Positions 1,573 to 23,575 of a stretch of 24,000 nucleotides of DNA are shown piece by piece; the stretch's first letter is position 1; the number at the start of each line of letters is the position of its first letter. The DNA comes from an uncultured Megasphaera sp. (GTDB taxonomy: Bacteria > Bacillota > Negativicutes > Veillonellales > Megasphaeraceae). The position numbers were made by a program, and so were the translations under genes. The stretch lies in the NCBI RefSeq assembly GCF_958350005.1, contig NZ_CATWFF010000001.1, positions 6,616 through 30,615 of the forward strand, written 5' to 3'. A model generated the notes under the pieces. That model was not told the DNA's origin. It searched no databases and worked only from the letters and a program-made list of their open reading frames with translations.

Positions 1573-2957
1573 TGGCTTCCTTTTCACTGCAAGACGTACT
1601 GCAGGCAACAGGCGGCACTGTAGCCTGCGGGAAAAGGTCTGAACAGCATTTTTCCGACGTGTCTACCGATACGCGGACTATTGCGCCGCAGTCCCTGTTC
1701 GTCGCCCTGAAAGGGGAAACCTTTGATGGCCATGCCTTTGTGGCGGCAGCAGCTGAAGCCGGCGCTTCCGGCGCTGTCGTATCGGAATGGCGCGATGCAT
1801 ACCGCAGCCTGCCCCTGACAGTGATTGTCGTAACGGACACGCTGCAGGCCTATCAGGATCTGGCCCGGTTCCACCGGCGCCGTTTCTCCATTCCCGTCAT
1901 TGCTGTAACGGGCTCTGTCGGCAAGACATCGACGCGGAATATGATTGCTACCGTTCTTTCGCAAAAACTGCAGGTCCTGCAGACAGAAAAGAACTTCAAT
2001 AATGAAATCGGCTTGCCCCGGACGCTGCTCCAGCTGACAGACCGGCATGAAGCCTGCGTCGTAGAAATGGGCATGCGCGGTCTGGGACAGATTGCAGCCC
2101 TGGCGGCCATTGCCGAGCCGACAATCGGCGTCGTAACCAATGTGGGTATCTGCCATATTGAGCTGCTGGGCTCGCAGGACAATATTGCCCGGGCCAAAGG
2201 GGAACTGGTAGAAGCCATTCCGGCCAATGGCACGGCTGTATTAAATGGTGACGACCCCTATGTCTCCGCCATGGCAGACAAATGCCGCGGCACCGTCGTT
2301 ACCTATGGCGAACAGGCGCAGGCTGATGTACAGGCCTGCCGGATTTCGGCAGATGAACGGGGTGTGTCCTTTACGTGCCAGTCAGGAGGGGAATCCTTTG
2401 ACGTAACGGTGCCGGTTATTGGGCGGCATCACGTATATAATGCCCTGGCAGCCGTAGCCGTTGCCAGACTGACCGGCGTGACGACAGAACAGATACAGAA
2501 AGGACTGGCTTCCTACGCCGGCATGCCCATGCGGGAGGAACTGATTCATATCGGCGGCTGTACGTTTATTAACGATACGTATAATGCGAATCCGGCCTCC
2601 ATGGCCGCTGCTGTCCAGACGCTGGCTCATCTGACGAAGGGCCGCAAAATTGCGTTCCTCGCCGGTATGGGCGAGCTGGGACAGTGGGCTAAGAAGGCTC
2701 ATGAAGATATAGGCCGCCTGGTTGTAAAAGAGCATATTGACATTCTGATTACGCTGGGGACGCTGGCAGAAAACATTGCTTCTGCTGCCCGCAGTGAAGG
2801 AATGACGGCCGTGTATACGACGGAGACGCATGCCGAAGGGGCTGCGCTCCTGCAGTCTTTGTTGAAGCCGGGGGATACGGTTCTGCTCAAGGGATCCCGC
2901 AGCTTTGCCATGGAAAAGATACTGCCTTATATGGAAAGGAAGTCATGTGAATGTTAA
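1572..2957 (+). CDS. murF: UDP-N-acetylmuramoyl-tripeptide--D-alanyl-D-alanine ligase (MurF)
   Basis: 461-aa ORF. Its ATG overlaps the murE TGA by 1 nt (TGATG). P-loop AVTGSVGKTSTR and Mur-ligase middle and C-terminal domain pattern. Position fits dcw order. Confidence 0.95.
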   Translation: MASFSLQDVLQATGGTVACGKRSEQHFSDVSTDTRTIAPQSLFVALKGETFDGHAFVAAAAEAGASGAVVSEWRDAYRSLPLTVIVVTDTLQAYQDLARFHRRRFSIPVIAVTGSVGKTSTRNMIATVLSQKLQVLQTEKNFNNEIGLPRTLLQLTDRHEACVVEMGMRGLGQIAALAAIAEPTIGVVTNVGICHIELLGSQDNIARAKGELVEAIPANGTAVLNGDDPYVSAMADKCRGTVVTYGEQAQADVQACRISADERGVSFTCQSGGESFDVTVPVIGRHHVYNALAAVAVARLTGVTTEQIQKGLASYAGMPMREELIHIGGCTFINDTYNANPASMAAAVQTLAHLTKGRKIAFLAGMGELGQWAKKAHEDIGRLVVKEHIDILITLGTLAENIASAARSEGMTAVYTTETHAEGAALLQSLLKPGDTVLLKGSRSFAMEKILPYMERKSCEC

Positions 2958-3916
2958 ACACCCTGATTTTTGGATTTGCTGTCAGTTTAGTCGTCGCCCT
3001 GGTGCTGGGAAAACCGGTTATTCAGCAGCTGAAGAAATTTCATGCCCGTCAGTCTGAACGGGAAGAAGGACCGCAAAGTCATAAATACAAGGCCGGTACG
3101 CCGACAATGGGGGGCATCCTTATTTTAGCAGCCCTTGTCGTTTCCTGCCTGGTCTTCAATCCGACGGACCTGCGCAAGGGGCTGGCCTTATTCCTGACCT
3201 TGGGACACGGCGTCATTGGGTTTCTGGATGATGCCATCAAGGCGGTAAAACACCGGAACCTGGGATTGACAGCAAAGCAAAAATTACTGGGCCAGTTTAT
3301 TATGGCCGCCATATTTTGCTTTATCTTAAAAGAATTTCTTCAGTTCCCTACGACTTTGTGGATTCCCTTTACGTCACTGAATATTGACCTGGGATTTTTC
3401 TATTACTTCGTCGTATTTATCATGATCGTCGGCACGAGCAATGCTGTAAATCTTACTGATGGCCTTGATGGCCTGGCTGCAGGCTCCTGTGCCATTACGT
3501 CCGTTGCCTATGTCGTCATTGCCGTGGCTCTCGGCTATGTCAACTTTGCCGTCTTCAGCGCCGCTCTGACCGGTGCATGCCTGGGCTTTCTGTTTTACAA
3601 CCAGCATCCGGCCAAGATGTTTATGGGCGATACGGGCTCTTTGGCCTTAGGCGGGGCCCTGGCGGCAATGGCTATTTTGACGAAGACCGAACTGCTGCTG
3701 ATTCTGGCCGGAGGGCTGTACGTAGTCGAAGCGCTGTCGGTCATTATTCAGGTCGTGTCGTTTAAAACGCGAGGTGTCCGGATTTTTAAGATGAGTCCTA
3801 TTCACCATCATTTTGAATTATCTGGCTGGAGTGAAGTCAAGGTCGTTACTGTTTTTTGGAGTTTTTCCGCTCTTATGGCTATTTTGGCGATTATCGTCGT
3901 CTTGACGACAAAATAA
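2951..3916 (+). CDS. mraY: Phospho-N-acetylmuramoyl-pentapeptide transferase (MraY)
   Basis: 321-aa polytopic membrane protein. MraY motifs TPTMGG, NAVNLTDGLDGLA, MGDTGSLALGG and SPIHHHFE. Overlaps murF by 7 nt. Confidence 0.95.
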   Translation: MLNTLIFGFAVSLVVALVLGKPVIQQLKKFHARQSEREEGPQSHKYKAGTPTMGGILILAALVVSCLVFNPTDLRKGLALFLTLGHGVIGFLDDAIKAVKHRNLGLTAKQKLLGQFIMAAIFCFILKEFLQFPTTLWIPFTSLNIDLGFFYYFVVFIMIVGTSNAVNLTDGLDGLAAGSCAITSVAYVVIAVALGYVNFAVFSAALTGACLGFLFYNQHPAKMFMGDTGSLALGGALAAMAILTKTELLLILAGGLYVVEALSVIIQVVSFKTRGVRIFKMSPIHHHFELSGWSEVKVVTVFWSFSALMAILAIIVVLTTK

Positions 3917-3963
3917 AGCGGATATGAATACATTCATTTTCATGGCAAAGCAGGTGTTGGCAA

Positions 3964-5328
3964 ATGAGCATTATGGATTTTACAGGCAAACATATACTGG
4001 TTCTCGGCGCCGGTATCAGCGGCCAAGCTGCGTCGCTGGCCCTGGCCCGGCACGGCGGCAGCGTCGTACTGAATGATAAAAAAAATATTGATACGTCAGA
4101 AAAACCATGGCCGGAACTTGCCGCTGCCGGTGTGCAGCTGGTTTTCGGCAGTCAGGATATGGGTCTTCTCGAGGGCGTGGATATTGTCGTTCCATCACCG
4201 GTTATTTCTCCGGAAATGCCGCTGGTAGCAGAAGCCCTGCGCCGCGGACTTCCTGTCTGGAGCGAAGTCGAAGTGGCCTGCCGTCTTACGAATGCGGAAA
4301 TACTGGGCGTTACCGGTACGAACGGCAAGACGACGACAACGACTCTTCTCGGTGAAATGATGAAGGCTTCAGGCCGTCAGACCGTAGTAGGCGGCAATAT
4401 TGGCGCCGGATTATCGGAACTGGCAGAAGATTTGCCGGCCACGGCCGTCGTAGTAGCCGAGCTGTCGAGTTTTCAGCTGGAATTGACGCAGACCCTGAAG
4501 CCGAAGGCTGCGGTTATTCTGAACATTACGCCAGACCATCTGGACCGTCATCATACGATGGAAGCCTATGCTGCTGCGAAAGAACGGATTTTCCGCAATC
4601 AGGACAGTCACGATTTTGCGGCGCTCAATTATGATGACGCTCGGGTTCGGGCCATGGCAGACCGGATGAAAGGTCATATTCTGTGGTTTTCAACGGAAAG
4701 GGAAGTGCCGGAAGGGGCCTTCTATGACGGCACCTCTCTCATCCTTCGCCTCCACGGTGCCGATACGGTTATTTGCCGGGATAGGGACCTGCATCTGTTT
4801 GGCCGCCATAATATACAGAACTGCCTGGCTGCGTCTCTTCTGGCTCATGCTGCCGGCGTATCGCTGGATGTGATCCGCAAGGTACTGATGAGCTTTAAAG
4901 GCGTAGAACACAGACTGGAAAAAGTTCGCGTCATTCATGGCGTTACGTATTACAATGATTCCAAGGGAACCAATACGGACGCTTCCATTAAGGCGTTGGA
5001 AGCCTTTTCCGGTCATTTGATTCTCATTGCCGGCGGATACGATAAGATGACGCCTCTTGATGAGTTTATGGCGCTGGCAGCGAAAAAAGTCGATACCCTT
5101 ATCCTTATCGGCAATGCAGCTGACCGGTTTGAAGAAGCAGCTAAAAAGGCGGGCATTACAGATATTCGCCGTGCCGGGTACAGTATGGAACAGGCCATTA
5201 TGATGGCCCGCAAGATTGCCAAGGCACCGCAGGCCGTGCTGTTGTCGCCGGCTTGCTCCAGTTATGATATGTATGATAATTATGAACAGCGCGGACGGGT
5301 CTTTAAAGGCATTGTCAACGCAATATAG
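3964..5328 (+). CDS. murD: UDP-N-acetylmuramoylalanine--D-glutamate ligase (MurD)
   Basis: 454 aa. N-terminal Rossmann loop VLGAGISGQA and P-loop GVTGTNGKTTTT. GCAGGTG RBS lies 7 nt upstream. Confidence 0.95.
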   Translation: MSIMDFTGKHILVLGAGISGQAASLALARHGGSVVLNDKKNIDTSEKPWPELAAAGVQLVFGSQDMGLLEGVDIVVPSPVISPEMPLVAEALRRGLPVWSEVEVACRLTNAEILGVTGTNGKTTTTTLLGEMMKASGRQTVVGGNIGAGLSELAEDLPATAVVVAELSSFQLELTQTLKPKAAVILNITPDHLDRHHTMEAYAAAKERIFRNQDSHDFAALNYDDARVRAMADRMKGHILWFSTEREVPEGAFYDGTSLILRLHGADTVICRDRDLHLFGRHNIQNCLAASLLAHAAGVSLDVIRKVLMSFKGVEHRLEKVRVIHGVTYYNDSKGTNTDASIKALEAFSGHLILIAGGYDKMTPLDEFMALAAKKVDTLILIGNAADRFEEAAKKAGITDIRRAGYSMEQAIMMARKIAKAPQAVLLSPACSSYDMYDNYEQRGRVFKGIVNAI

Positions 5329-5360
5329 CAGTTAGTAATCTGGTAATGGGGGACGAAGAC

Positions 5361-6488
5361 ATGCGCCGAGTCATTATTTCCGGAGGCGGAACAGGCGGGC
5401 ATATTTATCCGGCAATTACGATTGCCCGGGCAATTGCCGACATCGAACCGACGGAGTTTTTATATGTAGGTTCTAAAATTGGATTGGAAAATACGCTGAT
5501 CCCTAAAGAAGGACTGCCGTTTGTTACCTTGGATGTACGGGGACTGGAACGAAAAATCTCCTTCCGCAACCTGGTTACGCTGGGGAAAACGGCGGCCAGC
5601 CTGATTCGGGCAGAAGGTATTATCCGTAAGTTTAAGCCGGACGTCGTCATCGGGACAGGCGGCTTTGTCTGCGGTCCCGTGCTGCTGGCAGCCAGCCTGA
5701 GCGGCGTGCCGGCACTGATTCAGGAACAGAACGTCATTCCTGGCGTGACCAATATGATTTTGAGCAAGTTTGTCACTCGTGTGGCCTTGGGATACAGGGA
5801 AGCGGCAGGCCGGTTCAAGCGGAAGAATATACTGGTATATACGGGAAATCCCGTCCGCAAGGATATTCTGACAGTTACAAAAGAAGAAGGGCGGCAGATG
5901 CTGGGGCTGGATCCTCATAAATTTACGCTCCTCGTAGCCGGCGGCAGCCGGGGGGCCAGAAGCATCAATTCTGCCATGATAGAAGTACATAAATATTTTG
6001 CCAATGCCAAGGATATACAAATCCTGCATGTAACAGGCGATCATGAATACGATCGGGTCGTCAAGCAGCTCGACGGCATTGACGGCAAGGGCCGCTACGG
6101 AGAAGGGAGCCGGATCATTCCCTATCTCCATCACATGCCGGCAGCCCTGGCCGCTGCTGATCTGGCCGTATACCGCGCCGGTGCCGTAGGACTGGCAGAG
6201 CTGACGGTCCGGGGCGTACCATCTATTCTGATTCCCTATCCCTATGCCGCAGAAGATCATCAGCGCTATAATGCCCAGGCTCTGGTCATGTGCGGCGCCG
6301 CCAAAATGATTCTGGACAAAATGCTGACCGGACGGGATTTGCTGGAAGAAATTCTGCACCTTAAAGAGGATCCGCAGGCCCTGGCAGCCATGGCCAAGGC
6401 CAGCAAGGCATTGGGGAAACCGCAGGCAGCCCATGATATTGCCACCCTGGCGTTATCCATTGCCCGCTGTCGGCACAGCTCTCACTAA
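5361..6488 (+). CDS. murG: Undecaprenyldiphospho-muramoylpentapeptide beta-N-acetylglucosaminyltransferase (MurG)
   Basis: N-terminal G-loop ISGGGTGGHIYPA with GT28 family layout. I chose the ATG at 5361, which has GGGGGA 7 nt upstream. The ORF-track ATG at 5346 has no SD and adds MGDED. Confidence 0.9.
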   Translation: MRRVIISGGGTGGHIYPAITIARAIADIEPTEFLYVGSKIGLENTLIPKEGLPFVTLDVRGLERKISFRNLVTLGKTAASLIRAEGIIRKFKPDVVIGTGGFVCGPVLLAASLSGVPALIQEQNVIPGVTNMILSKFVTRVALGYREAAGRFKRKNILVYTGNPVRKDILTVTKEEGRQMLGLDPHKFTLLVAGGSRGARSINSAMIEVHKYFANAKDIQILHVTGDHEYDRVVKQLDGIDGKGRYGEGSRIIPYLHHMPAALAAADLAVYRAGAVGLAELTVRGVPSILIPYPYAAEDHQRYNAQALVMCGAAKMILDKMLTGRDLLEEILHLKEDPQALAAMAKASKALGKPQAAHDIATLALSIARCRHSSH

Positions 6489-6511
6489 ATAAAGGATGTG
6501 TAAGAAAGACC

Positions 6512-7891
6512 ATGGTTAATCTTGACGATATACGAAAAATACATTTTGTTGGCATTGCCGGCGCAGGTATGCGGGCTATTGCCAATGTATTCATAGAAAA
6601 AGGATATGACGTATCCGGTTCTGATATCAGAGAATCGGATATTACCAGACGGCTGGCAGAAAAAGGGGCCCGCATCTGTATTGGACAGAAAGGGGAAAAC
6701 CTGGAAGATGCGCAGGTCGTCGTCGTTTCTTCGGCTATCCGCAGCGACAATGCCGAAGTCGTTGAAGCGCGGCGCCGGCAGATTCCGGTCATCCATCGTT
6801 CTGACGCCCTTGTCCATATCATGACCTGGGGTAAGGGAATCTCCGTTGCCGGTGCTCACGGCAAGACGACGACGTCGTCCATGCTGGGCCAGGTATTTGA
6901 AGAAAATCATATGGACCCGACTATTGTCATTGGCGGCGAAGTCGATTACCTGCACAGTAATTCCATCCTTGGCAAGGGCAAATATGTCATTGCCGAAGCC
7001 GATGAAAGTGACGGAACCTTTCTCAAGCAGAAACCGTACATTGCTGTAGTGACGAATATTGACGCCGACCATATGGATCATTACGGCTCACTGGCCAATG
7101 TGGTAGAAGCGTTTAAAGAATTTATTCAGAAGCTGGACCCGGAAACGGGACTGGCTGTGCTGTGCGTGGAAAATGAACGCATCCGTGCGCTGGCACCGCA
7201 CGTACAGCGCCGATATGTATCGTACGGCATTGATCAGCCTGCAGATTATCAGGCTTCCAATCTTCACTATGTGGCAGGACGGCTGCACTTTGACGTCTCG
7301 TTCCAGGGTACACACCTGGGAGAAGTGGTGCTCCATGTTCCAGGTCGGCATAATGTGCTCAATGCCCTGGCAACGATTGCCGTCGCCCTTCACTGCGGCA
7401 TTCCCTTTGCCGGAATAGCAGAAGCGCTGTCTCATTTTCACGGAGCAAAACGGCGGTTCCAGACGAAGGGAATCGTCAAAGACGTGTGGGTCGTTGACGA
7501 TTATGCTCATCATCCGACAGAAATCAATGCCACCCTGACGGCAGCCCGGGACATGGGGACGCACCGCGTCGTATGCGTGTTCCAGCCGCACCGGTATACG
7601 CGGACGAAACTCCTGCTCAACCAATATGGAGCGGCCTTTGCCAAGGCAGATGAGCTCATCGTCACCGACGTGTACAGTGCCGGTGAAGATCCCATTCCCG
7701 GCATATCAGGCAAGCTGATTGCCGATAAGGTGCGGGAAACGACAGGGCAGGATGTGCGGTATATTCCCCATGCTGATGACGTTGTTGCGTACCTGGAGGA
7801 AACATCCCGGCCTTTCGACCTGATTATCACCATGGGAGCCGGCGATATTTACAAAGTAGGCGAACGTTATTTAGAAGCAGTCAGAAAATAG
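6512..7891 (+). CDS. murC: UDP-N-acetylmuramate--L-alanine ligase (MurC)
   Basis: 459 aa. N-terminal IHFVGIAGAGMRAIA and P-loop VAGAHGKTTTSSM, with a Mur-ligase C-terminal domain. Confidence 0.95.
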   Translation: MVNLDDIRKIHFVGIAGAGMRAIANVFIEKGYDVSGSDIRESDITRRLAEKGARICIGQKGENLEDAQVVVVSSAIRSDNAEVVEARRRQIPVIHRSDALVHIMTWGKGISVAGAHGKTTTSSMLGQVFEENHMDPTIVIGGEVDYLHSNSILGKGKYVIAEADESDGTFLKQKPYIAVVTNIDADHMDHYGSLANVVEAFKEFIQKLDPETGLAVLCVENERIRALAPHVQRRYVSYGIDQPADYQASNLHYVAGRLHFDVSFQGTHLGEVVLHVPGRHNVLNALATIAVALHCGIPFAGIAEALSHFHGAKRRFQTKGIVKDVWVVDDYAHHPTEINATLTAARDMGTHRVVCVFQPHRYTRTKLLLNQYGAAFAKADELIVTDVYSAGEDPIPGISGKLIADKVRETTGQDVRYIPHADDVVAYLEETSRPFDLIITMGAGDIYKVGERYLEAVRK

Positions 7892-7907
7892 GAGCATACA
7901 CAGGACT

Positions 7908-8846
7908 ATGGAAATGATGAAAGAGAAAAAAATCGCCGTCATCGTAGGCGGCCCTTCAACGGAAGCAGCTGTTTCGCGCAATACTGGGACCTCGGTGGCC
8001 AAAGCGCTGAATGAAAAGGGATATCATACGGAAACGATCGAGCTGGTGCCGCATGAACTGGCCAGAGAACTGGAAGAACGCCATATTGACGTCGTCTTCA
8101 ATGCCCTGCACGGCCGGTACGGTGAAGACGGCGTGCTACAGGGCATGTGTGAAATGATGGGCATTCCCTATACAGGTCCCGGCGTCATGGCCAGTGCCGT
8201 AGGCATGAGCAAAGTCATGAGCAAGTGCGCCTTTCAGGGGGCCGGTATTCCGACAGCTCCCTTTGCGTATTACTTTGCTTCCCAGGGAACGGATGCTATT
8301 TTGAAAGATCTGCACAGCCGCTTCTCCCTGCCTGTAGTCATCAAGTCTTCCGGACAGGGTTCCAGCATTGGCACGGTCATTGTTACAGAAGAATCGCAGC
8401 TGAAAGGCGCCCTCGATGAAGCCTTCAAATATGGCGATTCCATTATTGCCGAAGCCTTTCTGACTGGCGATGAATTTACGGTTGCTGTCATGGATGACCT
8501 GGCCTTTCCGGTTATTCAGATCGTGTCGTCTACAGGAAAGTACGATTATTATTCCAAATACACGCCAGGCGTGTCTACCCATCTTTGCCCGGCACCGGTG
8601 TCAGAAGAACTGACCAAAGAGATGCAGGACCTGGCGCTGCGCGTGTTCCACCTGTGCCACTGCAGCGGCGTAGCCCGCGTCGATTTGATGACAGACGGAA
8701 AGGGCAATCCTTTTGTTCTGGAAATCAATACGGTCCCCGGCATGACAGCGACCAGTCTGGTGCCGGATGCAGCCAAGGCCATGGGCCTTTCCTTTGCCGA
8801 TTTATGTGAAAAGATTCTGCTGGAAGCTTCTGTAGGTAAATTCTGA
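7908..8846 (+). CDS. ddl: D-alanine--D-alanine ligase (Ddl)
   Basis: 312 aa, ATP-grasp. KIAVIVGGPSTEAAVS N-terminus and LEINTVPGMTATSLVP near the C-terminus. The omega-loop segment YYSKYTPG keeps the Tyr that aligns with E. coli DdlB Tyr216, as expected for D-Ala-D-Ala rather than D-Ala-D-Lac ligases. Confidence 0.93.
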   Translation: MEMMKEKKIAVIVGGPSTEAAVSRNTGTSVAKALNEKGYHTETIELVPHELARELEERHIDVVFNALHGRYGEDGVLQGMCEMMGIPYTGPGVMASAVGMSKVMSKCAFQGAGIPTAPFAYYFASQGTDAILKDLHSRFSLPVVIKSSGQGSSIGTVIVTEESQLKGALDEAFKYGDSIIAEAFLTGDEFTVAVMDDLAFPVIQIVSSTGKYDYYSKYTPGVSTHLCPAPVSEELTKEMQDLALRVFHLCHCSGVARVDLMTDGKGNPFVLEINTVPGMTATSLVPDAAKAMGLSFADLCEKILLEASVGKF

Positions 8847-8847
8847 T

Positions 8848-9741
8848 ATGCCAAAGGACAGATACACGTTGCCCGAACTCCATCGAACCAGCGATGTGTT
8901 TATTCCTCCCCAGATTGAACACGATCCGCTGGATGACCTGACGCCGGGAAACGAAAAGAAAGAACAGCCGGAACCTGGGGAAAAGCGCCGCCGTCTGCGC
9001 CGAAAGAAAAAGGACAGCCTGCGCCGCCGGCGCCGGCGGAAAAAGCGCAGCCGCCTGGCAATCGCCGGAGGTGTTCTGGGAGTTTTGGTTCTGTGGCTGC
9101 TGCTGCGGGTGGCACCGATTTCGTTCGGCACTCTCCTTATTGAAGGCAATGAAGCGCTGACGGCAGAAGACGTACGTCGGGCTGCCGGCGTGCCAGGGTA
9201 TGTCAATGTCATTCAGCTGTCGCCGGACGATATGCAGGAACGGATGCAGAAGGATCTGCGCATCAGCGCTGTCACAGTAAAGCGGGAATTTCCGGCGGCC
9301 ATACGCATTACGCTGACGGAACGAAAAGCAGCTGCTGTTGTCCGGACGCTGTATGGCTTTGCCTATGTCGATGCCAAAGGCACCGTCATGGATATACAGC
9401 CGCAGATTCAGGGCATTTCCGTTCCCATCATTACAGGTACCAAAATGGATGCGCTCCTGCTGGGTGATACTATCAGCGACGGTCCCATTGCACGGGGACT
9501 GGCGTATCTGCAGGAACTGCCGCCGGATATTCTGAAGACCATTGCCGAAGTCAATGTGGGAAATGAAACCAACCTCATTGCCTATACGAGTGATTCCCTG
9601 CCTATTTATCTGGGGACAGGCGACCACCCGGCAGAACGGGCAAAGCTTACGGAAGAGCTGCTGCAGGAAGTGCAGCAGCGGCATATGATGGTTCAGTATA
9701 TTGATACGGATATACGGGCCCCCCTGGTCAAAAGCAAATAG
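8848..9741 (+). CDS. ftsQ: Cell division protein FtsQ/DivIB (POTRA domain) with a polybasic N-terminal tail
   Basis: 297 aa. Cytoplasmic tail, a single TM helix (IAGGVLGVLVLWLLL), then a POTRA-like segment (IEGNEALTAEDVRRAAG...ITLTERKAAAVV). Lies between ddl and ftsZ. Confidence 0.8.
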   Translation: MPKDRYTLPELHRTSDVFIPPQIEHDPLDDLTPGNEKKEQPEPGEKRRRLRRKKKDSLRRRRRRKKRSRLAIAGGVLGVLVLWLLLRVAPISFGTLLIEGNEALTAEDVRRAAGVPGYVNVIQLSPDDMQERMQKDLRISAVTVKREFPAAIRITLTERKAAAVVRTLYGFAYVDAKGTVMDIQPQIQGISVPIITGTKMDALLLGDTISDGPIARGLAYLQELPPDILKTIAEVNVGNETNLIAYTSDSLPIYLGTGDHPAERAKLTEELLQEVQQRHMMVQYIDTDIRAPLVKSK

Positions 9742-9850
9742 GATGGGTTTACATAAAAAAAATATGGATAATTTTTTCCAGATAGTGTAAAATAATAGAG
9801 AATCCTATGTATACAGCAGTATTCACGATTTTGAAGGAGGAAAAAGTAAC

Positions 9851-10882
9851 ATGGCAGAGTTTGCAAATATAAAAGTAATTGGCGTTGGCGGCGGCGGAAA
9901 TAATGCTGTCAACCGTATGATAGAAAGCGGACTTCAGGGTGTACAGTTTATTTCGGTCAACACAGAAGACCAGGTACTGGAAGTATCGAAGGCAGATGTT
10001 AAAATTCAGATCGGTGAAAAACTGACCCGTGGTCTTGGTGCCGGTGCCAATCCTCAGGTTGGCGAACAGGCAGCACTGGAAAGCAAGGAAGAAATTATCA
10101 AAGCCCTTCAGGGTGCCGATATGGTTTTCGTCACAGCCGGCATGGGCGGCGGTACCGGCACAGGCGCTGCGCCGATCGTTGCCGAATGTGCCAAGGAAAT
10201 GGGCGCCCTTACGGTTGCTGTCGTTACCAAACCCTTTGCATTTGAAGGCAAACGCCGGAAAGAACAGGCAGAAAAAGGCGCTGCCTACTTAAAAGAAAAA
10301 GTAGATACGATCATTACGATTCCTAATGACAAACTGCTTCAGATTATTGACAAGAAAACGCCGCTGAAAGATGCGTTCCTCGTTGCCGATGACGTTCTCC
10401 GTCAGGGCGTACAGGGGATTTCCGACCTGATTACGACGACGGGCCTGATTAACCTGGACTTTGCTGACGTGAAGACCATCATGTCCGACCAGGGCGAAGC
10501 CATCATGGGCATCGGCGTAGGTTCCGGCGAAAACCGTGCTGTTGAAGCTGTTGACGGAGCTATTCACAGCTCCCTGCTGGAAACGGGTATTGACGGCGCC
10601 CAGAGCATTCTGCTCAACGTAACAGGCGGTCCTGACATCAGCCTGTATGAAATCAATGAAGCGGCAGAAAAAGTTGCGGAAGCAGTGGATCCGGACGCAA
10701 ACATCATCTTTGGTTCTGTCATCGATCCGGATATGGAAGACTCCATCCGTATTACTGTCGTTGCTACGGGATTTGGCAAAGAACCGTCGTCTATCCCTGC
10801 ATTTGGCCAGAACGGCAGCGTAAAGACCGGCAGTGACACCCGGGAAGCAGGCGGCGTAGAAATTCCTACGTGGATGAGATAA
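9851..10882 (+). CDS. ftsZ: Cell division GTPase FtsZ
   Basis: 343 aa. [15 protein letters not shown] and tubulin signature [11 protein letters not shown]-terminal anchor-binding peptide EIPTWMR. Strong GAAGGAGG RBS. Confidence 0.97.
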
Positions 10883-17270: not shown

Positions 17271-17298
17271 TTGAGATTCGTAAAAATTATAGTAGAAT
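17271..17298 (+). promoter_or_regulatory. Candidate sigma-70 promoter of the PTA-hydrogenase operon
   Basis: -35 TTGAGA (17271-17276), 16-nt spacer, -10 TAGAAT (17293-17298), in an AT-rich 230-nt intergenic region about 78 nt upstream of the ATG. Confidence 0.4.
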
Positions 17299-17375: not shown

Positions 17376-19817
17376 ATGTCTCGTTTTATGAATAACCTGA
17401 AGCGGCGCGTAGCCAAAAAAGTAAAAAGAATTGTGTTGCCTGAATCGCACAGCCGCCGTGTACTGCAGGCCGTAGAAATGGTGCAGACCGAAGGGTTTGC
17501 CCGTCCTATTCTGGTCGGCAGGCCTCACGAACTGATTGAGCGGGCCGGAGAATACCAGATCGATCTGGACGGCATAGAAATTATCGATCCGGAAACGTAT
17601 CCCATGCTGGACAAATTCAGCAAGTATTATGCAGAAAAATCCAGCAAAGGCAGTATGTCGGAAGAAGAAGCACGGACCATATTGCTGCAGAATCCTATTC
17701 GCTTCGGTGCCTGTCTGGTAGCCTTTGATATTGCTGACGGCATGGTAGCCGGCATTACTGATCCGTCATCAGAAGTCCTTCATGCATCGCTCCAGCTCAT
17801 TGGCGTACACCCTGGCGTAACCACTGTCAGCAGTACGATGATCATGATTACCGATAAGCCCCAGTTTGGCGATGACGGTATTTTTGTTATCGGCGACCCT
17901 GACGTCATTATCGAGCCGACGGCGCAGCAGCTGGCCGATATTGCCGCCAACTGCGTGGAACGGGCCCGCCGGACCGTACAGATTCTGGACCCGCGGGTAG
18001 CGCTCCTTTCGTATTCCACCATGGGCAGCGGCGAAGGTGAGGAAGTAGATCGCGTACGGGAAGCAGTCCAGCTCCTGCGGGACCGGAACGTAGATTTTGC
18101 CTTTGACGGTGAACTGCAGCTGGATACGGCCATTGTTCCCCGTATTGCCCAGAATAAAGCTCCCGATTCTGCCGTAGCCGGCCAGGCCAATATTCTGATT
18201 TTCCCAAACCTGTCGGCTGCCAATGTGAGCTACAAAATGCTGAAATACTTATACGACGCCCAGGCTGTCGGTCCTATGCTGCAGGGGCTGAAAAAGCCGG
18301 TTATGGACTTGCCCCGCGGCTGTTCGCCTGAAGATATTGTCGATGTCATGGCTGTCTGCTGCAGTGATGCCATCTATATGGAAGAAGAACGGAAGCGGGA
18401 TATTGAGTTTACGAGCCGCTTTGAAAAACTCGATCGCCGCGTAGCTATTGCCAAGCATAATGTGTCTATTCAGTTCGACGAAAGCAAGTGTAAGAACTGC
18501 ACCCTGTGCCGCCGCCGCTGTGCTGATGTCATGACCATTACGGGGTATTATTCGCTGGAAAGTACGGGAGACAAGCCTATTTGCGTCAACTGCGGCCAAT
18601 GTGCCCTGACCTGTGTGTTTGATGCTACTAATGGCGTATCGCAAAGTGAGTTCATCCAGCGGGATATAGACGATCCTGACAAGATTGTTATTTTCCAGAC
18701 CGCACCGGCCGTGCGCGTGGCGTTGGGCGAAGAATTCGGCATGCCTTACGGCTCCATGGTGCAGGGGAAACTGATCGCTGCTCTGCGGGCTTTAGGCGGA
18801 GACTATGTATTTGACACTAACTTTGGTGCCGATTTGACGATTATGGAAGAAGCGTCAGAGCTGCTGGACCGACTGGAAAATAAAAAGAAACTGCTGCCCC
18901 AGTTTACGAGCTGCTGCCCGTCATGGGTGGAATTTACGGAAATTTTCTTCCCCGAACTGATTCCCCATTTGTCGACGGCAAAAAGTCCGATCAGCATGCT
19001 CAGTTCCATGATTAAGACCTATTTTGCCGATCGAAAACACCTGGACCCGAAGAAGATCGTTACTGTCTGCGTTACGCCGTGTACGGCAAAGAAAGCGGAA
19101 ATTGAACGGCCTGAACATAATGCAGCCGGCAGATACTGGGATCAGCCGGAAATCCGCGATACTGACTACTGCATTACGACGCGGGAACTGGCCAACTGGA
19201 TGCGTAGCCGAAACATTGACTTTAACAGCCTGGAAGACTCGGCGTATGATTCCGTATTCGGCGAATCGTCAGGTGCCGGCATGATTTTCGGCGCCAGCGG
19301 CGGCGTGATGGAAGCAGCGCTGCGGACGCTGGTATATCTGGATACGGGCCGGGTTGCCGATAAGAACTTCCTGAACTTTACGCCTGTTCGTGGATTAGAC
19401 GGCGTCAAAGAAGCATCCATTACGTTCCGCAACGATATTATCCGCGTTGCCGCCATCAGCGGGCTAGGGAATGCCCGCAAGATTATGAACGTGCTGAAAG
19501 AAAATCACTCGTGGAAGAAGTATGCTTTCATTGAAGTCATGGCCTGCCCGGGCGGCTGCATTGGCGGCGGCGGCCAGCCGCGGACGAAGATGCCCCAGGA
19601 AATTACGGCCAAGAGAGCCCGTATCGAATCGGTATATGCCCTGGACCGGGAAAATATTATCCATTCGAGCTGGCAGAATCAGGAACTGAGCCAGCTCTAT
19701 GCCCGATTCCTGGATAAGCCCCTGAGTGAACGGGCTGAGCAGCTGCTGCACACGCAGTATGTCAATAAACACTATATGTTAGGGAGAGAAGACAATGTAG
19801 AACCGATCAGTTCGTGA
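17376..19817 (+). CDS. Fusion protein: N-terminal phosphate acetyl/butyryltransferase (PTA_PTB) domain plus C-terminal M2-type [FeFe]-hydrogenase, copy 1
   Basis: 813 aa from the ATG at 17376, which has AAGAAGGTG 6 nt upstream and gives the same MSRFMNNLKRR N-terminus as the paralog. PTA motifs: IVLPES, ADGMVAG, LLSYSTMGSG, DGELQLD, VAGQANILIFPNL, MDLPRGCSPEDIVD. Hydrogenase motifs: CKNCTLCRRRC and CVNCGQCALTC; FDTNFGADLTIMEE; FTSCCPSW; TPCTAKKAE; EVMACPGGCIGGGGQP; small-subunit-like tail LLHTQYVNKHY. Confidence 0.9.
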   Translation: MSRFMNNLKRRVAKKVKRIVLPESHSRRVLQAVEMVQTEGFARPILVGRPHELIERAGEYQIDLDGIEIIDPETYPMLDKFSKYYAEKSSKGSMSEEEARTILLQNPIRFGACLVAFDIADGMVAGITDPSSEVLHASLQLIGVHPGVTTVSSTMIMITDKPQFGDDGIFVIGDPDVIIEPTAQQLADIAANCVERARRTVQILDPRVALLSYSTMGSGEGEEVDRVREAVQLLRDRNVDFAFDGELQLDTAIVPRIAQNKAPDSAVAGQANILIFPNLSAANVSYKMLKYLYDAQAVGPMLQGLKKPVMDLPRGCSPEDIVDVMAVCCSDAIYMEEERKRDIEFTSRFEKLDRRVAIAKHNVSIQFDESKCKNCTLCRRRCADVMTITGYYSLESTGDKPICVNCGQCALTCVFDATNGVSQSEFIQRDIDDPDKIVIFQTAPAVRVALGEEFGMPYGSMVQGKLIAALRALGGDYVFDTNFGADLTIMEEASELLDRLENKKKLLPQFTSCCPSWVEFTEIFFPELIPHLSTAKSPISMLSSMIKTYFADRKHLDPKKIVTVCVTPCTAKKAEIERPEHNAAGRYWDQPEIRDTDYCITTRELANWMRSRNIDFNSLEDSAYDSVFGESSGAGMIFGASGGVMEAALRTLVYLDTGRVADKNFLNFTPVRGLDGVKEASITFRNDIIRVAAISGLGNARKIMNVLKENHSWKKYAFIEVMACPGGCIGGGGQPRTKMPQEITAKRARIESVYALDRENIIHSSWQNQELSQLYARFLDKPLSERAEQLLHTQYVNKHYMLGREDNVEPISS

Positions 19818-19832
19818 AAGAAGGAATGACGT

Positions 19833-22262
19833 ATGTCACGGTTCATGAATAATCTGAAGAGACGTGTAGGGAGACAGCAGAAAAAAATCGTCCTGCCTGA
19901 ATCGGACAGCCGCCGGATACTTCAGGCTGTCGATCAAATTGAAACGGAAGGGTTTGCCAAGACGGTCCTCGTCGGCAAACCGCGGCAGCTGATGGAACGG
20001 GCCTTTAAATACCAGATCGACCTGGACGGCGTAGAAATTATTGATCCGGAAACGTATCCCATGCTGGATACATTCAGCCGCTTTTATGCAGAGAAGCGCC
20101 GCAAGAAGGGCATGACTGTTTCCCAGGCCCGGGAAATTCTTTTAACAGATTACATTTGCTTTGGCGCGTGCCTCGTGGCTTTTGATATTGTTGACGGCAT
20201 GGTTGGCGGGGCGACGGTGCCGTCAGCCGATCTGATTCGGGCAGCCCTGCAGATTGTCGGCATGCATCCTGGTATTTCCACGGTCAGCAGTTCCTTCATT
20301 ATCATTACGGACAAGCCCCAGTTTGGCGACGACGGCATTTTCGTCCTTGGCGATGCCAGCGTCGTCATTGAGCCGACGGCACAGCAGCTGGCCGATATTA
20401 CGGTAAACTGTGTACACCGGGCGCGGCGTACGGTGCAGACCCTGGACCCGAAGGCGGCGCTCCTGTCGTATTCGACCCTGGGAAGCGGATCAGGAGAACA
20501 GGTGGACCGTGTGCGGGAAGCGGCCAGGCTGCTGCGGGACCGGAATGTGGATTTTGATTTCGACGGCGAGCTCCAGTCCGATGCGGCCATTATTCCCCGC
20601 GTTGCCCGCTACAAAGCGCCGGGTTCAACCGTTGCCGGTCAGGCTAATGTTCTGGTATTTCCCAATCTGGAGTCCGGCAATATTTGCTATAAGATTTTGC
20701 AGCATCTCTATGGCGCCATCGCCTTGGGGCCTCTTCTGGAAGGGACGGCCAAACCTATTATGGATCTGTCCCGGGGATGCTCTGCTGAAGATATTGTCGA
20801 TATTGTGGCTATTTGCTGCAGCGATGCCATTTATCAGGATGCCGAACGGCGGCGGGATCAGGATTTTACCAGCCATTTTGCCATGCTCGATCATCGCGTG
20901 GCTGTGGATGAACATAATATATCCATTCGCTTTGACGGAACAAAGTGCCAGAACTGCTCCCTTTGCCGCCGCCGCTGTGCAGAGGTTATGACGGTGACGG
21001 GATATTATTCCCTGGCCAGCACAGGAGACACGCCGATCTGCGTGCACTGCGGACAGTGTTCGCTGGTCTGCCCCTTTGGCGCAACCAAGAGCATTTCTCA
21101 GGAAACCTATATCGAGCAGGCTATGGCAGATCCCGATAAAATCGTCGTATTCCAGACCGGTGCCGCTGTACGGGTGGCCCTGGGAGAAGAGTTCGGCCTG
21201 CCTTATGGAACGAATGTGGAAGATAAGCTTATTGGAGCCCTGCGGGAACTGGGCGGCGATTACGTCTTTGATACCAATGCAGCCTCTGATATTGCCGTCA
21301 TGGAAGAAGTGGCCGAACTGCGGCAGCGCCTGAAGGAACACCGGGAATTGACGCCCATGTTTACCAGTGTCTGCCCGTCGTGGATTGAATTTATGGAAAT
21401 CTTTTTCCCTGAACTGCTTCCTCATTTGTCAACAGCTAAAAGCCCTACGAGCATGATGGGCGCTGTCATTAAAACGTACCTTGCCAAAACCCTTCATGTC
21501 GATCCGGAACGGATCGTTACGGTCAGCATTACGCCGTGTACGGCAAAAAAAGCGGAAATCTCCCGGCCGGAACGCAATGCTGCCGGCCAGTTCTGGCAGA
21601 AACCGGATATGCGGGATACCGATTACTGCCTGACCGTGCGGGAACTGGCCAACTGGATGCGAAGAAAAGACATGAACCTGACCGATATGCCGGCTTCACA
21701 GTATGATGCGCCGTTTCACAGGGCATCTGGCGGGGCTATGCTGGTCGGCGCCAGCGGCGGCATGATGGAAGCGATGATGCGGACCTTTGCCTATGAAGAG
21801 ACAGGCAAAGTCGATGAGGAATTTCTGCATTTCACGCCTGTCCGCGGACTGACTGGCGTGAAAGAAGCATCTGTTTCCATTGGAGATGCCCTCTTCCGCG
21901 TCGCCGTCGTCAGCGGCCTGGGAAATGCCAGGGCCTTTATTAATCGCCTGAAAGAAAAACATTCGTGGAAAAAATATACGTGTATTGAAATCATGGCCTG
22001 TCCTGGCGGCTGTATTGGCGGCGGCGGCCAGCCCAGAACGGAAATGGCCGATGAAATACCGGCCAAGCGGGCCCGCATGGAAGCCATCTATCAGGCTGAT
22101 GCCAATAATCCGCGTCATGGCAGCTGGCAGGATGAAGCAGTCCGGGATGTCTATGCCGGCTTTTTAGGCGAGCCCCTGGGACCTGCGGCGCATGCGCTGC
22201 TGCATACGCAGTTTATTAACAAGCACTATCTGCTGGGAAAAGAAGACCGCGTTTCGCCCTGA
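19833..22262 (+). CDS. Fusion protein: N-terminal PTA_PTB domain plus C-terminal M2-type [FeFe]-hydrogenase-like domain, copy 2 (L1 motif TSVCP)
   Basis: 809 aa, 15 nt downstream of copy 1, with an AAGAAGGAA RBS. Collinear with copy 1, roughly two-thirds identical by eye. PTA motif MDLSRGCSAEDIVD is intact. Hydrogenase motifs: CQNCSLCRRRC, CVHCGQCSLVCP, FTSVCPSW (Val replaces the first Cys), TPCTAKKAE, EIMACPGGCIGGGGQP. Confidence 0.9.
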   Translation: MSRFMNNLKRRVGRQQKKIVLPESDSRRILQAVDQIETEGFAKTVLVGKPRQLMERAFKYQIDLDGVEIIDPETYPMLDTFSRFYAEKRRKKGMTVSQAREILLTDYICFGACLVAFDIVDGMVGGATVPSADLIRAALQIVGMHPGISTVSSSFIIITDKPQFGDDGIFVLGDASVVIEPTAQQLADITVNCVHRARRTVQTLDPKAALLSYSTLGSGSGEQVDRVREAARLLRDRNVDFDFDGELQSDAAIIPRVARYKAPGSTVAGQANVLVFPNLESGNICYKILQHLYGAIALGPLLEGTAKPIMDLSRGCSAEDIVDIVAICCSDAIYQDAERRRDQDFTSHFAMLDHRVAVDEHNISIRFDGTKCQNCSLCRRRCAEVMTVTGYYSLASTGDTPICVHCGQCSLVCPFGATKSISQETYIEQAMADPDKIVVFQTGAAVRVALGEEFGLPYGTNVEDKLIGALRELGGDYVFDTNAASDIAVMEEVAELRQRLKEHRELTPMFTSVCPSWIEFMEIFFPELLPHLSTAKSPTSMMGAVIKTYLAKTLHVDPERIVTVSITPCTAKKAEISRPERNAAGQFWQKPDMRDTDYCLTVRELANWMRRKDMNLTDMPASQYDAPFHRASGGAMLVGASGGMMEAMMRTFAYEETGKVDEEFLHFTPVRGLTGVKEASVSIGDALFRVAVVSGLGNARAFINRLKEKHSWKKYTCIEIMACPGGCIGGGGQPRTEMADEIPAKRARMEAIYQADANNPRHGSWQDEAVRDVYAGFLGEPLGPAAHALLHTQFINKHYLLGKEDRVSP

Positions 22263-22275
22263 TAGGCCGGACTAT

Positions 22276-22305
22276 TGACACCGGCGCGCATGGCCACGTA
22301 TAATA
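22276..22305 (+). promoter_or_regulatory. Near-consensus sigma-70 promoter driving the structured RNA
   Basis: -35 TTGACA (22276-22281), 18-nt spacer, -10 TATAAT (22300-22305). It starts 14 nt after the copy-2 stop codon. Confidence 0.6.
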
Positions 22306-22655: not shown

Positions 22656-22704
22656 AAAATGTAAAAGTGTTTATATTCAGCGGCCTGAAGGAGTGATGCT
22701 GCCG

Positions 22705-23157
22705 ATGCAGGCAGATGTAGCAGCAGTGGACAGAGAATTGCATAAAAATCCTTTTGATCGTTTTATGGATTTTCACATCGCCAAAGCCGATGAAGAAAGT
22801 ACGGTTCTCGTGTTTCAGAATAGAGGGTCATCGTGGGAAAATCCCAATGGCACACTCTATGGCGGCGTCTTGTATGCCATGGCAGACTCGGCGATGGAAA
22901 TTGCCTGTGCAGTCTGCGGCAATGCCGTCCTTACCCTGGATCTGGGAATGAACTATCTGCGCCCGGCTTTTTCCGATACGACGATTCGGGCAGAAGTAAA
23001 GATCATCCACAAAGGGCATACGACGATGGTGGCATTGTGCGATTTCTATGATAACCAGGAACGGTATCTGGCACACGGCAAGGGAACGTTTTTCGTAACC
23101 GGCCCGTTTGTATTTGGAGGTGAAGACACCGATGCTGACGGACAGACGGCGCAGTGA
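22705..23157 (+). CDS. PaaI/4HBT-type hotdog-fold acyl-CoA thioesterase, copy 1
   Basis: Hotdog thioesterase pattern NPNGTLYGGVLYAMADSAMEIA followed by a long central-helix and beta-sheet region. The start is uncertain. ATG 22705 lies 11 nt after AAGGAG. ATG 22696 and GTG 22693 sit too close to or inside the SD. Confidence 0.78.
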   Translation: MQADVAAVDRELHKNPFDRFMDFHIAKADEESTVLVFQNRGSSWENPNGTLYGGVLYAMADSAMEIACAVCGNAVLTLDLGMNYLRPAFSDTTIRAEVKIIHKGHTTMVALCDFYDNQERYLAHGKGTFFVTGPFVFGGEDTDADGQTAQ

Positions 23158-23575
23158 TGAAGCACTTCGCAGGCGGCTGCGAAATATTCAGCAGGGCATA
23201 TTCAGCCGAACGCCATATTTTCGCAATTTACCTTCAGAAATCGAAGACATTGATGAAGGGTGGGTACGTTTGGGCTTTGATATTTCTCCTCACCTGTGCA
23301 ACTATCGGGGTATAGCGTCAGGAGGGGTCCTGGCTGCGTTTTGCGATACCCTTATGGGGATGGCCAGCCGTACGCTGGGATATAAGGTGACGACGCTGGA
23401 AATTAATATGAACTATATCCGCCGCGTCCCGTCCGGCTGCCGCATTACCGGCATTGGTCAGGTCGTCCATCACGGCGGCAAGACCATTGTGGCAGAATGC
23501 GAATGCTTTGACGAAGATGGCGGTATTGTAGTGAAAGGCCGTTCTTCTTTTTACGTTTTGGGACGGTTGGACTAG
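23132..23575 (+). CDS. PaaI/4HBT-type hotdog-fold acyl-CoA thioesterase, copy 2
   Basis: NYRGIASGGVLAAFCDTLMGMA core. ATG 23132 has GGAGGTG 9 nt upstream, whereas the ORF-track start at 23108 is a TTG without an SD. Overlaps copy 1 by 26 nt. Confidence 0.78.
   Translation: MLTDRRRSDEALRRRLRNIQQGIFSRTPYFRNLPSEIEDIDEGWVRLGFDISPHLCNYRGIASGGVLAAFCDTLMGMASRTLGYKVTTLEINMNYIRRVPSGCRITGIGQVVHHGGKTIVAECECFDEDGGIVVKGRSSFYVLGRLD

Follow-up and report, generated by a model that had tools for sequence, protein, structure and literature searches.

Two tandem phosphotransacetylase-hydrogenase fusions

The window analysed here is a 24-kb stretch of DNA from an uncultured Megasphaera, a diderm Firmicute, in which all genes lie on the + strand. 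A murE-to-ftsZ cell-wall and division cluster is followed by nrdR, by heptose and lipopolysaccharide-core genes and by a small outer-membrane beta-barrel gene, after which come two tandem genes, designated copy 1 and copy 2, and two thioesterase genes. Each copy encodes a phosphotransacetylase (Pta) fused to an [FeFe] hydrogenase. A sequence-only reading of this DNA had proposed that each paralog retains one canonical motif and carries a substitution in the other. This pattern is borne out by further residues and by NCBIfam scores, the Pta domain being altered in copy 1 and the hydrogenase domain (H-domain) in copy 2. The features that carry this result are:

17376..19817, + strand: copy 1, an 813-residue fusion (P0001, 100% identity; WP_367881534.1), assigned by domain and NCBIfam matches
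17385..18359, + strand: copy 1 Pta domain, residues 4-328, aligned to 1qzt and four other solved Ptas and to 20 canonical Ptas
18489..18614, + strand: copy 1 ferredoxin-type domain (F-domain), residues 372-413, with eight Cys for two [4Fe-4S] clusters
18681..19769, + strand: copy 1 H-domain and small-subunit-like tail, residues 436-798
19818..19832, + strand: inter-copy spacer of 15 nt with the ribosome-binding site AAGAAGGA, read directly
19833..22262, + strand: copy 2, an 809-residue fusion (P0015; WP_367881535.1), assigned by domain and NCBIfam matches
19842..20816, + strand: copy 2 Pta domain, residues 4-328, with Arg89, Arg136, Ser313 (20769-20771), Arg314 and Asp320 all canonical
21138..22220, + strand: copy 2 H-domain and small-subunit-like tail, compared with 114 canonical relatives in the numbering of the Clostridium pasteurianum hydrogenase CpI

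From N- to C-terminus, each copy consists of a full-length PTA_PTB domain, an eight-Cys ferredoxin-type domain, Fe_hyd_lg_C and an Fe_hyd_SSU-like tail (Pfam). The PTA_PTB matches span profile positions 2-318/319 in both copies, with E-values of 5e-102 (copy 1) and 1e-104 (copy 2). The two proteins are collinear and 65% identical, with one single-residue gap. The linker that follows the Pta domain, FTSRFEKLDRRVA, corresponds to the extreme N-terminus of stand-alone Megasphaera M2 hydrogenases of 470-490 residues, indicating that a complete Pta has been joined to a complete M2-type enzyme. The phosphotransacetylase of the fusion is attached directly to the N-terminal end of the [FeFe] hydrogenase, which is of group A and of the M2 type.

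Scores against the NCBIfam equivalog models, which have cut-offs of 311.2 bits for TIGR00651 (pta) and 406 bits for TIGR02512 (hydrogenase), divide along the same lines:

copy 1: TIGR00651 310.2, just below the cut-off; TIGR02512 468
copy 2: TIGR00651 324.8; TIGR02512 421.6, about 46 bits under canonical relatives
P0007, a canonical fusion: TIGR00651 344; TIGR02512 468

P0002, a relative of copy 1, also lies below the 311.2-bit cut-off for TIGR00651, at 299.8. By domain and score, both copies fall within the PTA_PTB superfamily and within that of the group A [FeFe] hydrogenases, and each departs from the canonical catalytic residues in one of its two domains. Because of the score split, NCBI's name for copy 1 is hydrogenase and that for copy 2 phosphate acetyltransferase, even though both domains are present in both proteins.

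An altered Pta site in copy 1

Residue 313 of copy 1 is Pro (CCC, 18312-18314), giving MDLPRG, where copy 2 has Ser (TCC, 20769-20771) and MDLSRG, just as first read. By alignment to 1qzt, this residue corresponds to Ser309 of the Methanosarcina thermophila enzyme (MtPta). All 20 canonical Ptas in the comparison have this Ser, and DLSRG is found in all five solved Ptas shown. Replacement of Ser309 or Arg310 is reported to lower the kcat of MtPta greatly, and variants of Arg87 and Arg133 to affect Km (PMC6461089). Both of the latter positions are also changed in copy 1. His136 (17781-17783) occupies the Arg133 position, and in the Arg87 loop the conserved R-K-x-K-G reads K-S-S-K-G (K88-S89, 17637-17642); in the closest relatives of copy 1 the loop is deleted. 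Arg314 and Asp320, the equivalents of MtPta Arg310 and Asp316, are retained. Given the loss of Ser309, Arg133 and the Arg87 loop, the copy 1 Pta domain probably has little or altered transacetylase activity.

The hydrogenase half of copy 1 is canonical. Its motifs read TSCCP (Cys513/Cys514, 18912-18917), TPC (567-569) and MACPGGC (722-728), every proton-path and ligand residue is the expected one, and so are the di-iron cavity residues A230, P231, F417 and V423. At a conservation of 95% or more among 114 canonical relatives, 145 columns qualify, and copy 1 is off-consensus in only two of them.

A remodelled hydrogenase site in copy 2

The sequence-only reading had placed the reciprocal substitution at residue 513, and it stands: copy 1 reads FTSCCPSW (TGC TGC, 18912-18917) and copy 2 FTSVCPSW (GTC, 21369-21371). 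We verified the CpI numbering against Protein Data Bank (PDB) chains, and residue 513 is the equivalent of Cys299, the proton-relay Cys, while 514 is that of the ligand Cys300. Cys299 is present in 114/114 canonical relatives. In prototypical hydrogenases, its replacement by residues other than Asp abolishes or severely impairs activity (PMC10055695).

Val513 is one of many changes in this domain. Relative to the 114 canonical relatives, the copy 2 H-domain is off-consensus at about 25 near-invariant positions (at least 95% conserved), and when P0012 is counted with the copy 2 clade, 34/145 such columns are changed. In CpI numbering, the copy 2 changes include A230G/P231A (Gly443/Ala444), F270A/G271A/A272S (Ala483-Ala484-Ser485), T275A (Ala488), C299V (Val513), Thr539 at the Q325 position, I416L/F417V (Leu637/Val638), V423M (Met644), A427M (Met648) and F493C (Cys717). 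The divergent reading FDTNAASDIAVMEE that had been noted in copy 2 is correct. A230, P231, Q325, F417 and V423 are cavity or cyanide-contacting residues of CpI (PMC10147833). With the relay Cys lost and the di-iron cavity rebuilt, the domain probably serves as a redox module that turns over very slowly or is non-catalytic.

The cluster-binding residues are kept. Copy 2 retains the H-cluster ligands Cys514, 569, 723 and 727, plus Lys572 (the equivalent of Lys358). The four H-cluster Cys (CpI 300, 355, 499 and 503) and Lys358 are found in both copies and in 20/20 fusion clusters, and the eight F-domain Cys for two [4Fe-4S] clusters are likewise present in both copies, with all eight kept in 19/20. 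Met497 and the proton-path residues Glu279, Glu282, Arg286 and Ser319 are retained in copy 2, as they are in copy 1.

A Thr in place of the canonical Met of motif L2 had also been pointed out. TPC does occur in both copies, but it says nothing specific about the pair: Met is found at this position in 0/119 relatives, and we set the Thr aside as the norm of the family.

Sequencing error or strain polymorphism, which the sequence-only reading had allowed for as a source of Pro313 and Val513, was considered and rejected. The independent metagenome assembly L128 differs from the window at 5 of 10,168 bases (99.95% identity) and has both residues, and in either clade the state is fixed. Together, the L128 identity, the invariance of the Ser and the Cys among canonical relatives, and the two base changes that separate TGC from GTC exclude error and chance. 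The pair seems to lie on one contig in four assemblies.

The fusion family and its loci

In a search of 5.8 billion proteins, the best matches contained only 20 fusion clusters (90% identity), and all further matches covered a single domain. All named members are from Megasphaera, and the fusion is found in this genus and its close relatives. It is plentiful in human and animal gut metagenomes, with one cluster alone holding 1,563 member sequences. A scan of species genomes gave at least two fusion loci among the matches listed, neither of them from the genome of the window, absences there being uninformative. No further tandem pair was found among 40 metagenome loci or the contigs that were looked up.

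Three types of locus are distinguished. The first, common in human gut samples, reads glmM-glmS-fusion-stand-alone Pta-like gene; the second, pfk-fusion-ABC transporter; and the third, that of the window itself, fusion-raiA RNA-two thioesterases-acyl-CoA dehydrogenase-pheST.

Pro at the Ser309 position is found throughout the copy 1 clade (P0001, P0002, P0003) and at 17 further loci, and the Pro lineage occurs as a single gene at the pfk locus in other species (L001, L088-91, L141-150, L161). At position 299, the residue in the copy 2 clade is Val in P0015 and Ser in P0012 and P0138; the latter two also lack Glu279, Arg286 and Ser319, and P0138 has Gln at Lys358. In other species (L082 and L131-140, 11 loci with flanks), the raiA locus carries a fusion of this Cys-less lineage and no other, and no remnant of copy 1 was found upstream of the single fusion of L082. 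Whether the two substitutions were fixed, lineage-specific states had been raised as a check. Pro313 is indeed fixed in the copy 1 lineage; in the copy 2 lineage it is the absence of Cys that is fixed, the residue itself being Val or Ser. The sample lists, 12 for the Pro lineage and 21 for the Ser lineage, have no sample in common, which is only suggestive since the look-ups were by exact sequence.

Other members depart from the canonical residues in different combinations. P0005, a single gene at the raiA locus, has a canonical hydrogenase and Ser309, with His at Arg133. The glmS-locus clade (P0010, P0011, P0016, L111-L124) has Ala or Ser at Cys299, and most of its members also have Gly at Pta Asp316. 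Both domains are thus altered in one protein, which means that the changes are not always reciprocal.

At the glmS locus, P0013 and P0014 (L085, L125) have MTLTRG for MDLSRG (Asp307 to Thr, Ser309 to Thr) and Gln at Arg133, with a canonical hydrogenase; in this clade the Pta site has been altered independently for a third time. Three distant fusions of 865-873 residues (P0017, P0018, P0019; L086, L109, L110) carry about 54 inserted residues in the Pta domain, precisely where the Arg87 loop lies, and their genomic context differs (radical SAM, DUF4130). The glmS-locus fusion is always followed by a stand-alone PTA_PTB gene of 336-342 residues (L002, 7767-8795; L081, 10486-11496; L094-L122), which has DLSR[SA]S and Thr at Asp316; many contigs end just 3' of it. 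In the Pta tree this gene branches inside the fusion family, and it may be a fission product or a donor of the fusion. In the neighbour-joining tree of the hydrogenase half, two stand-alone hydrogenases of 473 residues (P0022, P0025) fall inside the fusion clade beside P0007 (58%), a placement that may reflect loss of the Pta domain or an artefact of gene calling.

Frameshifted or split fusions of the Ala-variant type were also seen (P0030; L106, L111, L116, L118, L121, L123, L124). Most lie on contigs of 1-4x coverage and are likely assembly errors for this reason; the P0030 cluster, however, has 40 member sequences, and some strains may carry pseudogenes.

Phylogeny and repeated loss of the relay Cys

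In the bootstrapped Pta tree, P0005 groups with the copy 1 and copy 2 clades (91%), and the sister of this group is the glmS-locus clade. In the same tree a second Cys-less group, the Ala clade, has a nested position next to the canonical P0007 (100%). Of the near-invariant columns, 11 are changed in the Ala clade, and the copy 2 clade departs from the consensus at every one of them (11/11; hypergeometric P≈3e-8); the replacement residues at these shared columns mostly differ between the two clades.

A single origin of the Cys-less H-domains was rejected. Their monophyly had bootstrap values of 31-34% with all columns and 0-2% when conserved-but-changed columns were removed, a filter that biases against grouping of the Cys-less clades. 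With those columns removed, the Ala clade joined P0007 in 97% of replicates. Taken together, the filtered hydrogenase tree, the Pta tree and synteny indicate that the proton-relay Cys was lost twice independently, with change at the same set of positions. Parallel change at 11 columns in turn suggests that the Cys-less H-domain is a defined alternative state and not a product of decay.

Age of the copies and selection on their domains

Copy 1 and copy 2 are separated by a synonymous divergence (dS) of about 1.5, and their identity at third codon positions is about 0.5 along the whole length. On these values, a recent tandem duplication or gene conversion was ruled out: the copies are old and have undergone no recent conversion.

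A comparison of dN/dS (omega) per domain and per copy had been proposed in the sequence-only reading, dN being the nonsynonymous divergence. Within lineages, pairs of genes with a usable dS gave the following values:

P0012 against P0138, dS 0.44: omega 0.023 (Pta), 0.046 (F-domain), 0.055 (H-domain)
two Ala-clade genes, dS 0.6-0.9: omega 0.024 (Pta), 0.008 (F-domain), 0.054 (H-domain)
two Pro-lineage genes, dS 0.12: dN 0 (Pta), 0 (F-domain), 0.0034 (H-domain)

Both lineages, including their altered domains, are under strong purifying selection, with omega about 0.02-0.06. In the copy 2 clade, amino-acid change in the H-domain is about 2.7x that in the Pta domain (dN 0.295 vs 0.108), whereas in the copy 1 clade the Pta and hydrogenase halves have equal rates (dN 0.115 vs 0.119). 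The specialisation is asymmetric: the copy 2 H-domain is broadly remodelled and faster, while the copy 1 Pta domain has a few targeted changes and is unaccelerated.

A probable operon and its neighbouring genes

Copy 1 starts at 17376 (MSRF...) behind the ribosome-binding site AAGAAGG, in agreement with the 813-residue database protein, and the residue numbering used here is valid on this start. A candidate promoter precedes it, inside the 231-bp gap 3' of the outer-membrane protein gene:

17271..17298, + strand: putative promoter 5' of copy 1, TTGAGA-16-TAGAAT, 10/12 consensus positions, a consensus match only

The ribosome-binding sites of the two copies are similar, and a scan for terminator-like sites on the + strand between copy 1 and copy 2 found none. 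Given this and the 15-nt spacer with its ribosome-binding site, the two genes are probably co-transcribed as one operon.

Directly 3' of copy 2 lies a raiA motif RNA (Rfam RF03072; 22309-22514, + strand), which scores 184 bits against a gathering score of 101. It is preceded by a perfect sigma-70 consensus promoter, TTGACA-18-TATAAT, at 22275-22304 on the + strand. The same promoter and RNA lie 3' of the fusion gene in L129, L082 and L131; the copy 2 lineage has no better synteny anchor. Two tandem 4HBT-type thioesterase open reading frames follow on the + strand (22693-23157 and 23108-23575), overlapping by 50 nt; in related contigs the next genes are an acyl-CoA dehydrogenase gene and pheS-pheT. 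Upstream of P0138 (L131-L140) lie genes for an acetyl-CoA hydrolase/transferase and a LytTR-type response regulator, with a gap of about 640 bp before the fusion, and these genes may represent a regulatory link.

At the other end of the window, positions 70-10882 (+ strand) hold murE, murF, mraY, murD, murG, murC, ddl, ftsQ and ftsZ. There is no ftsW-like gene between murD and murG and no ftsA between ftsQ and ftsZ, and the FtsZ protein is short (343 residues).

A proposed complementary specialisation and its alternatives

We consider it somewhat more probable than the opposite that the tandem genes are two old paralogs that specialised in complementary ways after duplication, each with one active domain, and that their pairing is retained but not obligate. 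Pyruvate:ferredoxin oxidoreductase yields acetyl-CoA and reduced ferredoxin, and from what is generally known of Megasphaera fermentation, the ancestral fusion would have linked two sinks for these products. Duplication of this bifunctional gene would then have given rise to the two lineages. Copy 1 is most likely a ferredoxin-dependent H2-evolving enzyme. Copy 2 is most likely a working acyl-CoA/acyl-phosphate transferase, and a role of this kind in acyl-CoA metabolism would fit with the adjoining thioesterase and acyl-CoA dehydrogenase genes; its hydrogenase domain is predicted still to bind iron-sulfur clusters. Selection may maintain the altered domains in a role that is changed or non-catalytic, whether structural, dimer-forming, scaffolding or regulatory. 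Pairing in the window genome would be the retained state of the duplication, one lineage being sufficient in related species. Subfunctionalisation had been suggested by the sequence-only reading, and the sister relationship of the clades (91%) and the complementary changes agree with it; the changes are, however, asymmetric and, across the family, not always reciprocal.

Several points weigh against this explanation. The activities assigned to the two copies, including the effect of Pro at the Ser309 position, are predicted from sequence. Since His at the Arg133 position also occurs in P0017-19 and SA_L081, and since Escherichia coli EutD, annotated as a phosphate acetyltransferase, is without the Arg87 motif, the Arg133-to-His and Arg87-loop changes are poor indicators of loss. 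In the copy 1 lineage the Pta domain is unaccelerated, and this is as compatible with a change of function as with its loss. Retention of Glu279, Glu282, Arg286 and Ser319 in copy 2 means that some turnover by another route is possible. Finally, dS is saturated in most pairwise comparisons, and all trees were built by neighbour joining, that of the hydrogenase having poor resolution.

The sequence-only reading had also offered an obligate heterodimer, formed through the Pta domains, in which one working Pta site and one working hydrogenase are combined and neither protein is functional alone. The adjacent genes with their 15-nt spacer and similar ribosome-binding sites would suit such a complex, as would the complementarity of the altered sites and the retention of the pair in independent assemblies, and solved Ptas are dimeric, with PgPta binding acetyl-CoA as a dimer (PMC6461089). 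What argues against an obligate partnership is the occurrence of either lineage alone in other Megasphaera: the Pro lineage at the pfk locus (17 loci), the Cys-less lineage at 11 loci with flanks, zero tandem pairs in 40 metagenome loci, and lists of 12 and 21 samples without overlap. We regard this possibility as quite unlikely. It is also unlikely, though a little less so, that the genes form a catalytic and sensory pair, in which the copy 2 H-domain would act as a slow, HydS-like sensor of H2 or redox state that controls the fused Pta or signals to another target. A hydrophobic residue replaces Cys299 in the sensory enzymes of groups C and D (PMC10407848). All cluster ligands are retained in copy 2, the altered domain is under strong purifying selection (omega about 0.055), and a second clade has changed independently at the same 11 conserved columns (P≈3e-8), a sign of a defined alternative state. 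Yet Pfam finds neither a PAS domain nor an extra C-terminal cluster, Met497 is retained, Thr at the Met353 position is simply the family norm, and the domain is not known to be coupled to any output. Moreover, P0138, the commonest ortholog, has Gln at Lys358, a residue that binds the distal cyanide, and this change may prevent binding of the di-iron site.

Full bifunctionality of both proteins, with Pro313 and Val513 tolerated or compensated and protons delivered by another route, appears improbable to us. Both open reading frames are intact and strongly constrained, copy 1 retains Arg310 and Asp316, copy 2 retains the rest of the proton path, and TmHydS, with Ala at position 299, is more active than CpI C299A (PMC10055695). 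Against this stand the invariance of the Ser and the Cys in all canonical relatives compared, the large losses on mutagenesis of both positions in model enzymes, the many further cavity changes in copy 2, and a drop in hidden Markov model (HMM) score exactly in the altered domains. Neutral decay, in which redundancy with stand-alone genes lets one domain per copy drift, is the explanation that we find hardest to credit and think highly improbable. The genus does have stand-alone Pta (L003) and M2 hydrogenase (P0040) genes, departures from canonical residues are many across the family (Asp316 to Gly or Asn, Ser309 to Thr, Lys358 to Gln), P0030 is frameshifted, and the copy 2 H-domain has evolved about 2.7x faster than its Pta domain. 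Drift of this kind is nevertheless difficult to reconcile with omega values of 0.02-0.06 in the altered domains at unsaturated dS, with retention of all twelve cluster-binding Cys, with changes that are parallel and column-specific, or with zero truncations in well-covered contigs.

Complementary specialisation leaves the role of the Cys-less H-domain to be considered. A speculative proposal, to which we give a low probability, is that this domain represents a new class within group A: a slow sensor of H2 or ferredoxin redox state that would gate the fused Pta, tying acetyl-phosphate (ATP) to H2 pressure, and that would have evolved at least twice in Megasphaera, in the lineage upstream of raiA that includes copy 2 and in the lineage downstream of glmS. 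Whatever its role, a twice-evolved, selectively maintained Cys-less state inside group A is more surprising than complementary specialisation. Loss of Cys299 on two occasions, with the same cavity residues and under strong selection, provides natural variants for the role of the second coordination sphere, and such variants bear on whether sensor-like behaviour can arise inside group A. The tandem pair, for its part, offers a compact and testable example of how labour can be divided between domains once a bifunctional gene has been duplicated.

Comparison with known systems

The fusion unites in one polypeptide both enzymes that use the products of pyruvate:ferredoxin oxidoreductase. Literature searches, which were incomplete in coverage, found no publication on a Pta-hydrogenase fusion, and the comparisons below are with systems that share one part of it.

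The closest hydrogenase is P0040, a stand-alone Megasphaera M2 enzyme of 486 residues, which is probably the biochemically studied M. elsdenii hydrogenase. Its F- and H-domains are 60-63% identical to those of the fusions, it has the same N-terminal FxSRFxxLxRRV segment, and it shares TSCCP, TPC and MACPGGC with copy 1. P0040 has no Pta domain, and copy 2 differs from it further in the missing first Cys of L1 and the rebuilt cavity. CpII of Clostridium pasteurianum has Thr at the CpI Met353 position, as does the whole fusion family (PMC10055695); CpII is a stand-alone enzyme, and the L2 Thr does not separate copy 1 from copy 2.

On the Pta side, the PTA_PTB fold of solved enzymes (1qzt, 2af3; 8fir, 6iow) aligns with the fusions over its full length, the fusions adding the hydrogenase. 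Compared with MtPta, copy 2 retains Arg87, Arg133, Ser309, Arg310 and Asp316, whereas in copy 1 the Arg87 loop is altered and Ser309 and Arg133 are replaced by Pro and His, respectively. Another system for comparison is the hybrid malic enzyme MaeB, in which malic enzyme is fused to a PTA-like domain that is non-catalytic and binds acetyl-CoA. As in the fusion, a PTA_PTB domain is there joined to an unrelated metabolic enzyme and catalytic residues have been lost. The E. coli protein reads HVLTPIAS at the DLSRG position and has lost all three of Ser309, Arg310 and Arg133. Copy 1, by contrast, keeps the Asp-Leu, Arg310 and Asp316 (D-L-x-R-G) and is about 50% identical to active Ptas; its Pta domain is far less degenerate than that of MaeB. 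The PTA domain is N-terminal in the fusion and C-terminal in MaeB.

The sensory hydrogenases TmHydS (group C) and TamHydS (group D) have Ala at the Cys299 position (PMC10407848). Copy 2 resembles them in that the relay Cys is replaced by a non-protonatable residue while the cluster ligands are kept (PMC10407848, PMC10055695). It differs in being group A by TIGR02512, in having no PAS domain or C-terminal cluster, and in keeping Met497 and the rest of the proton path. The likeness of copy 2 to HydS is confined to the Cys299 position, and it belongs to neither group C nor group D.

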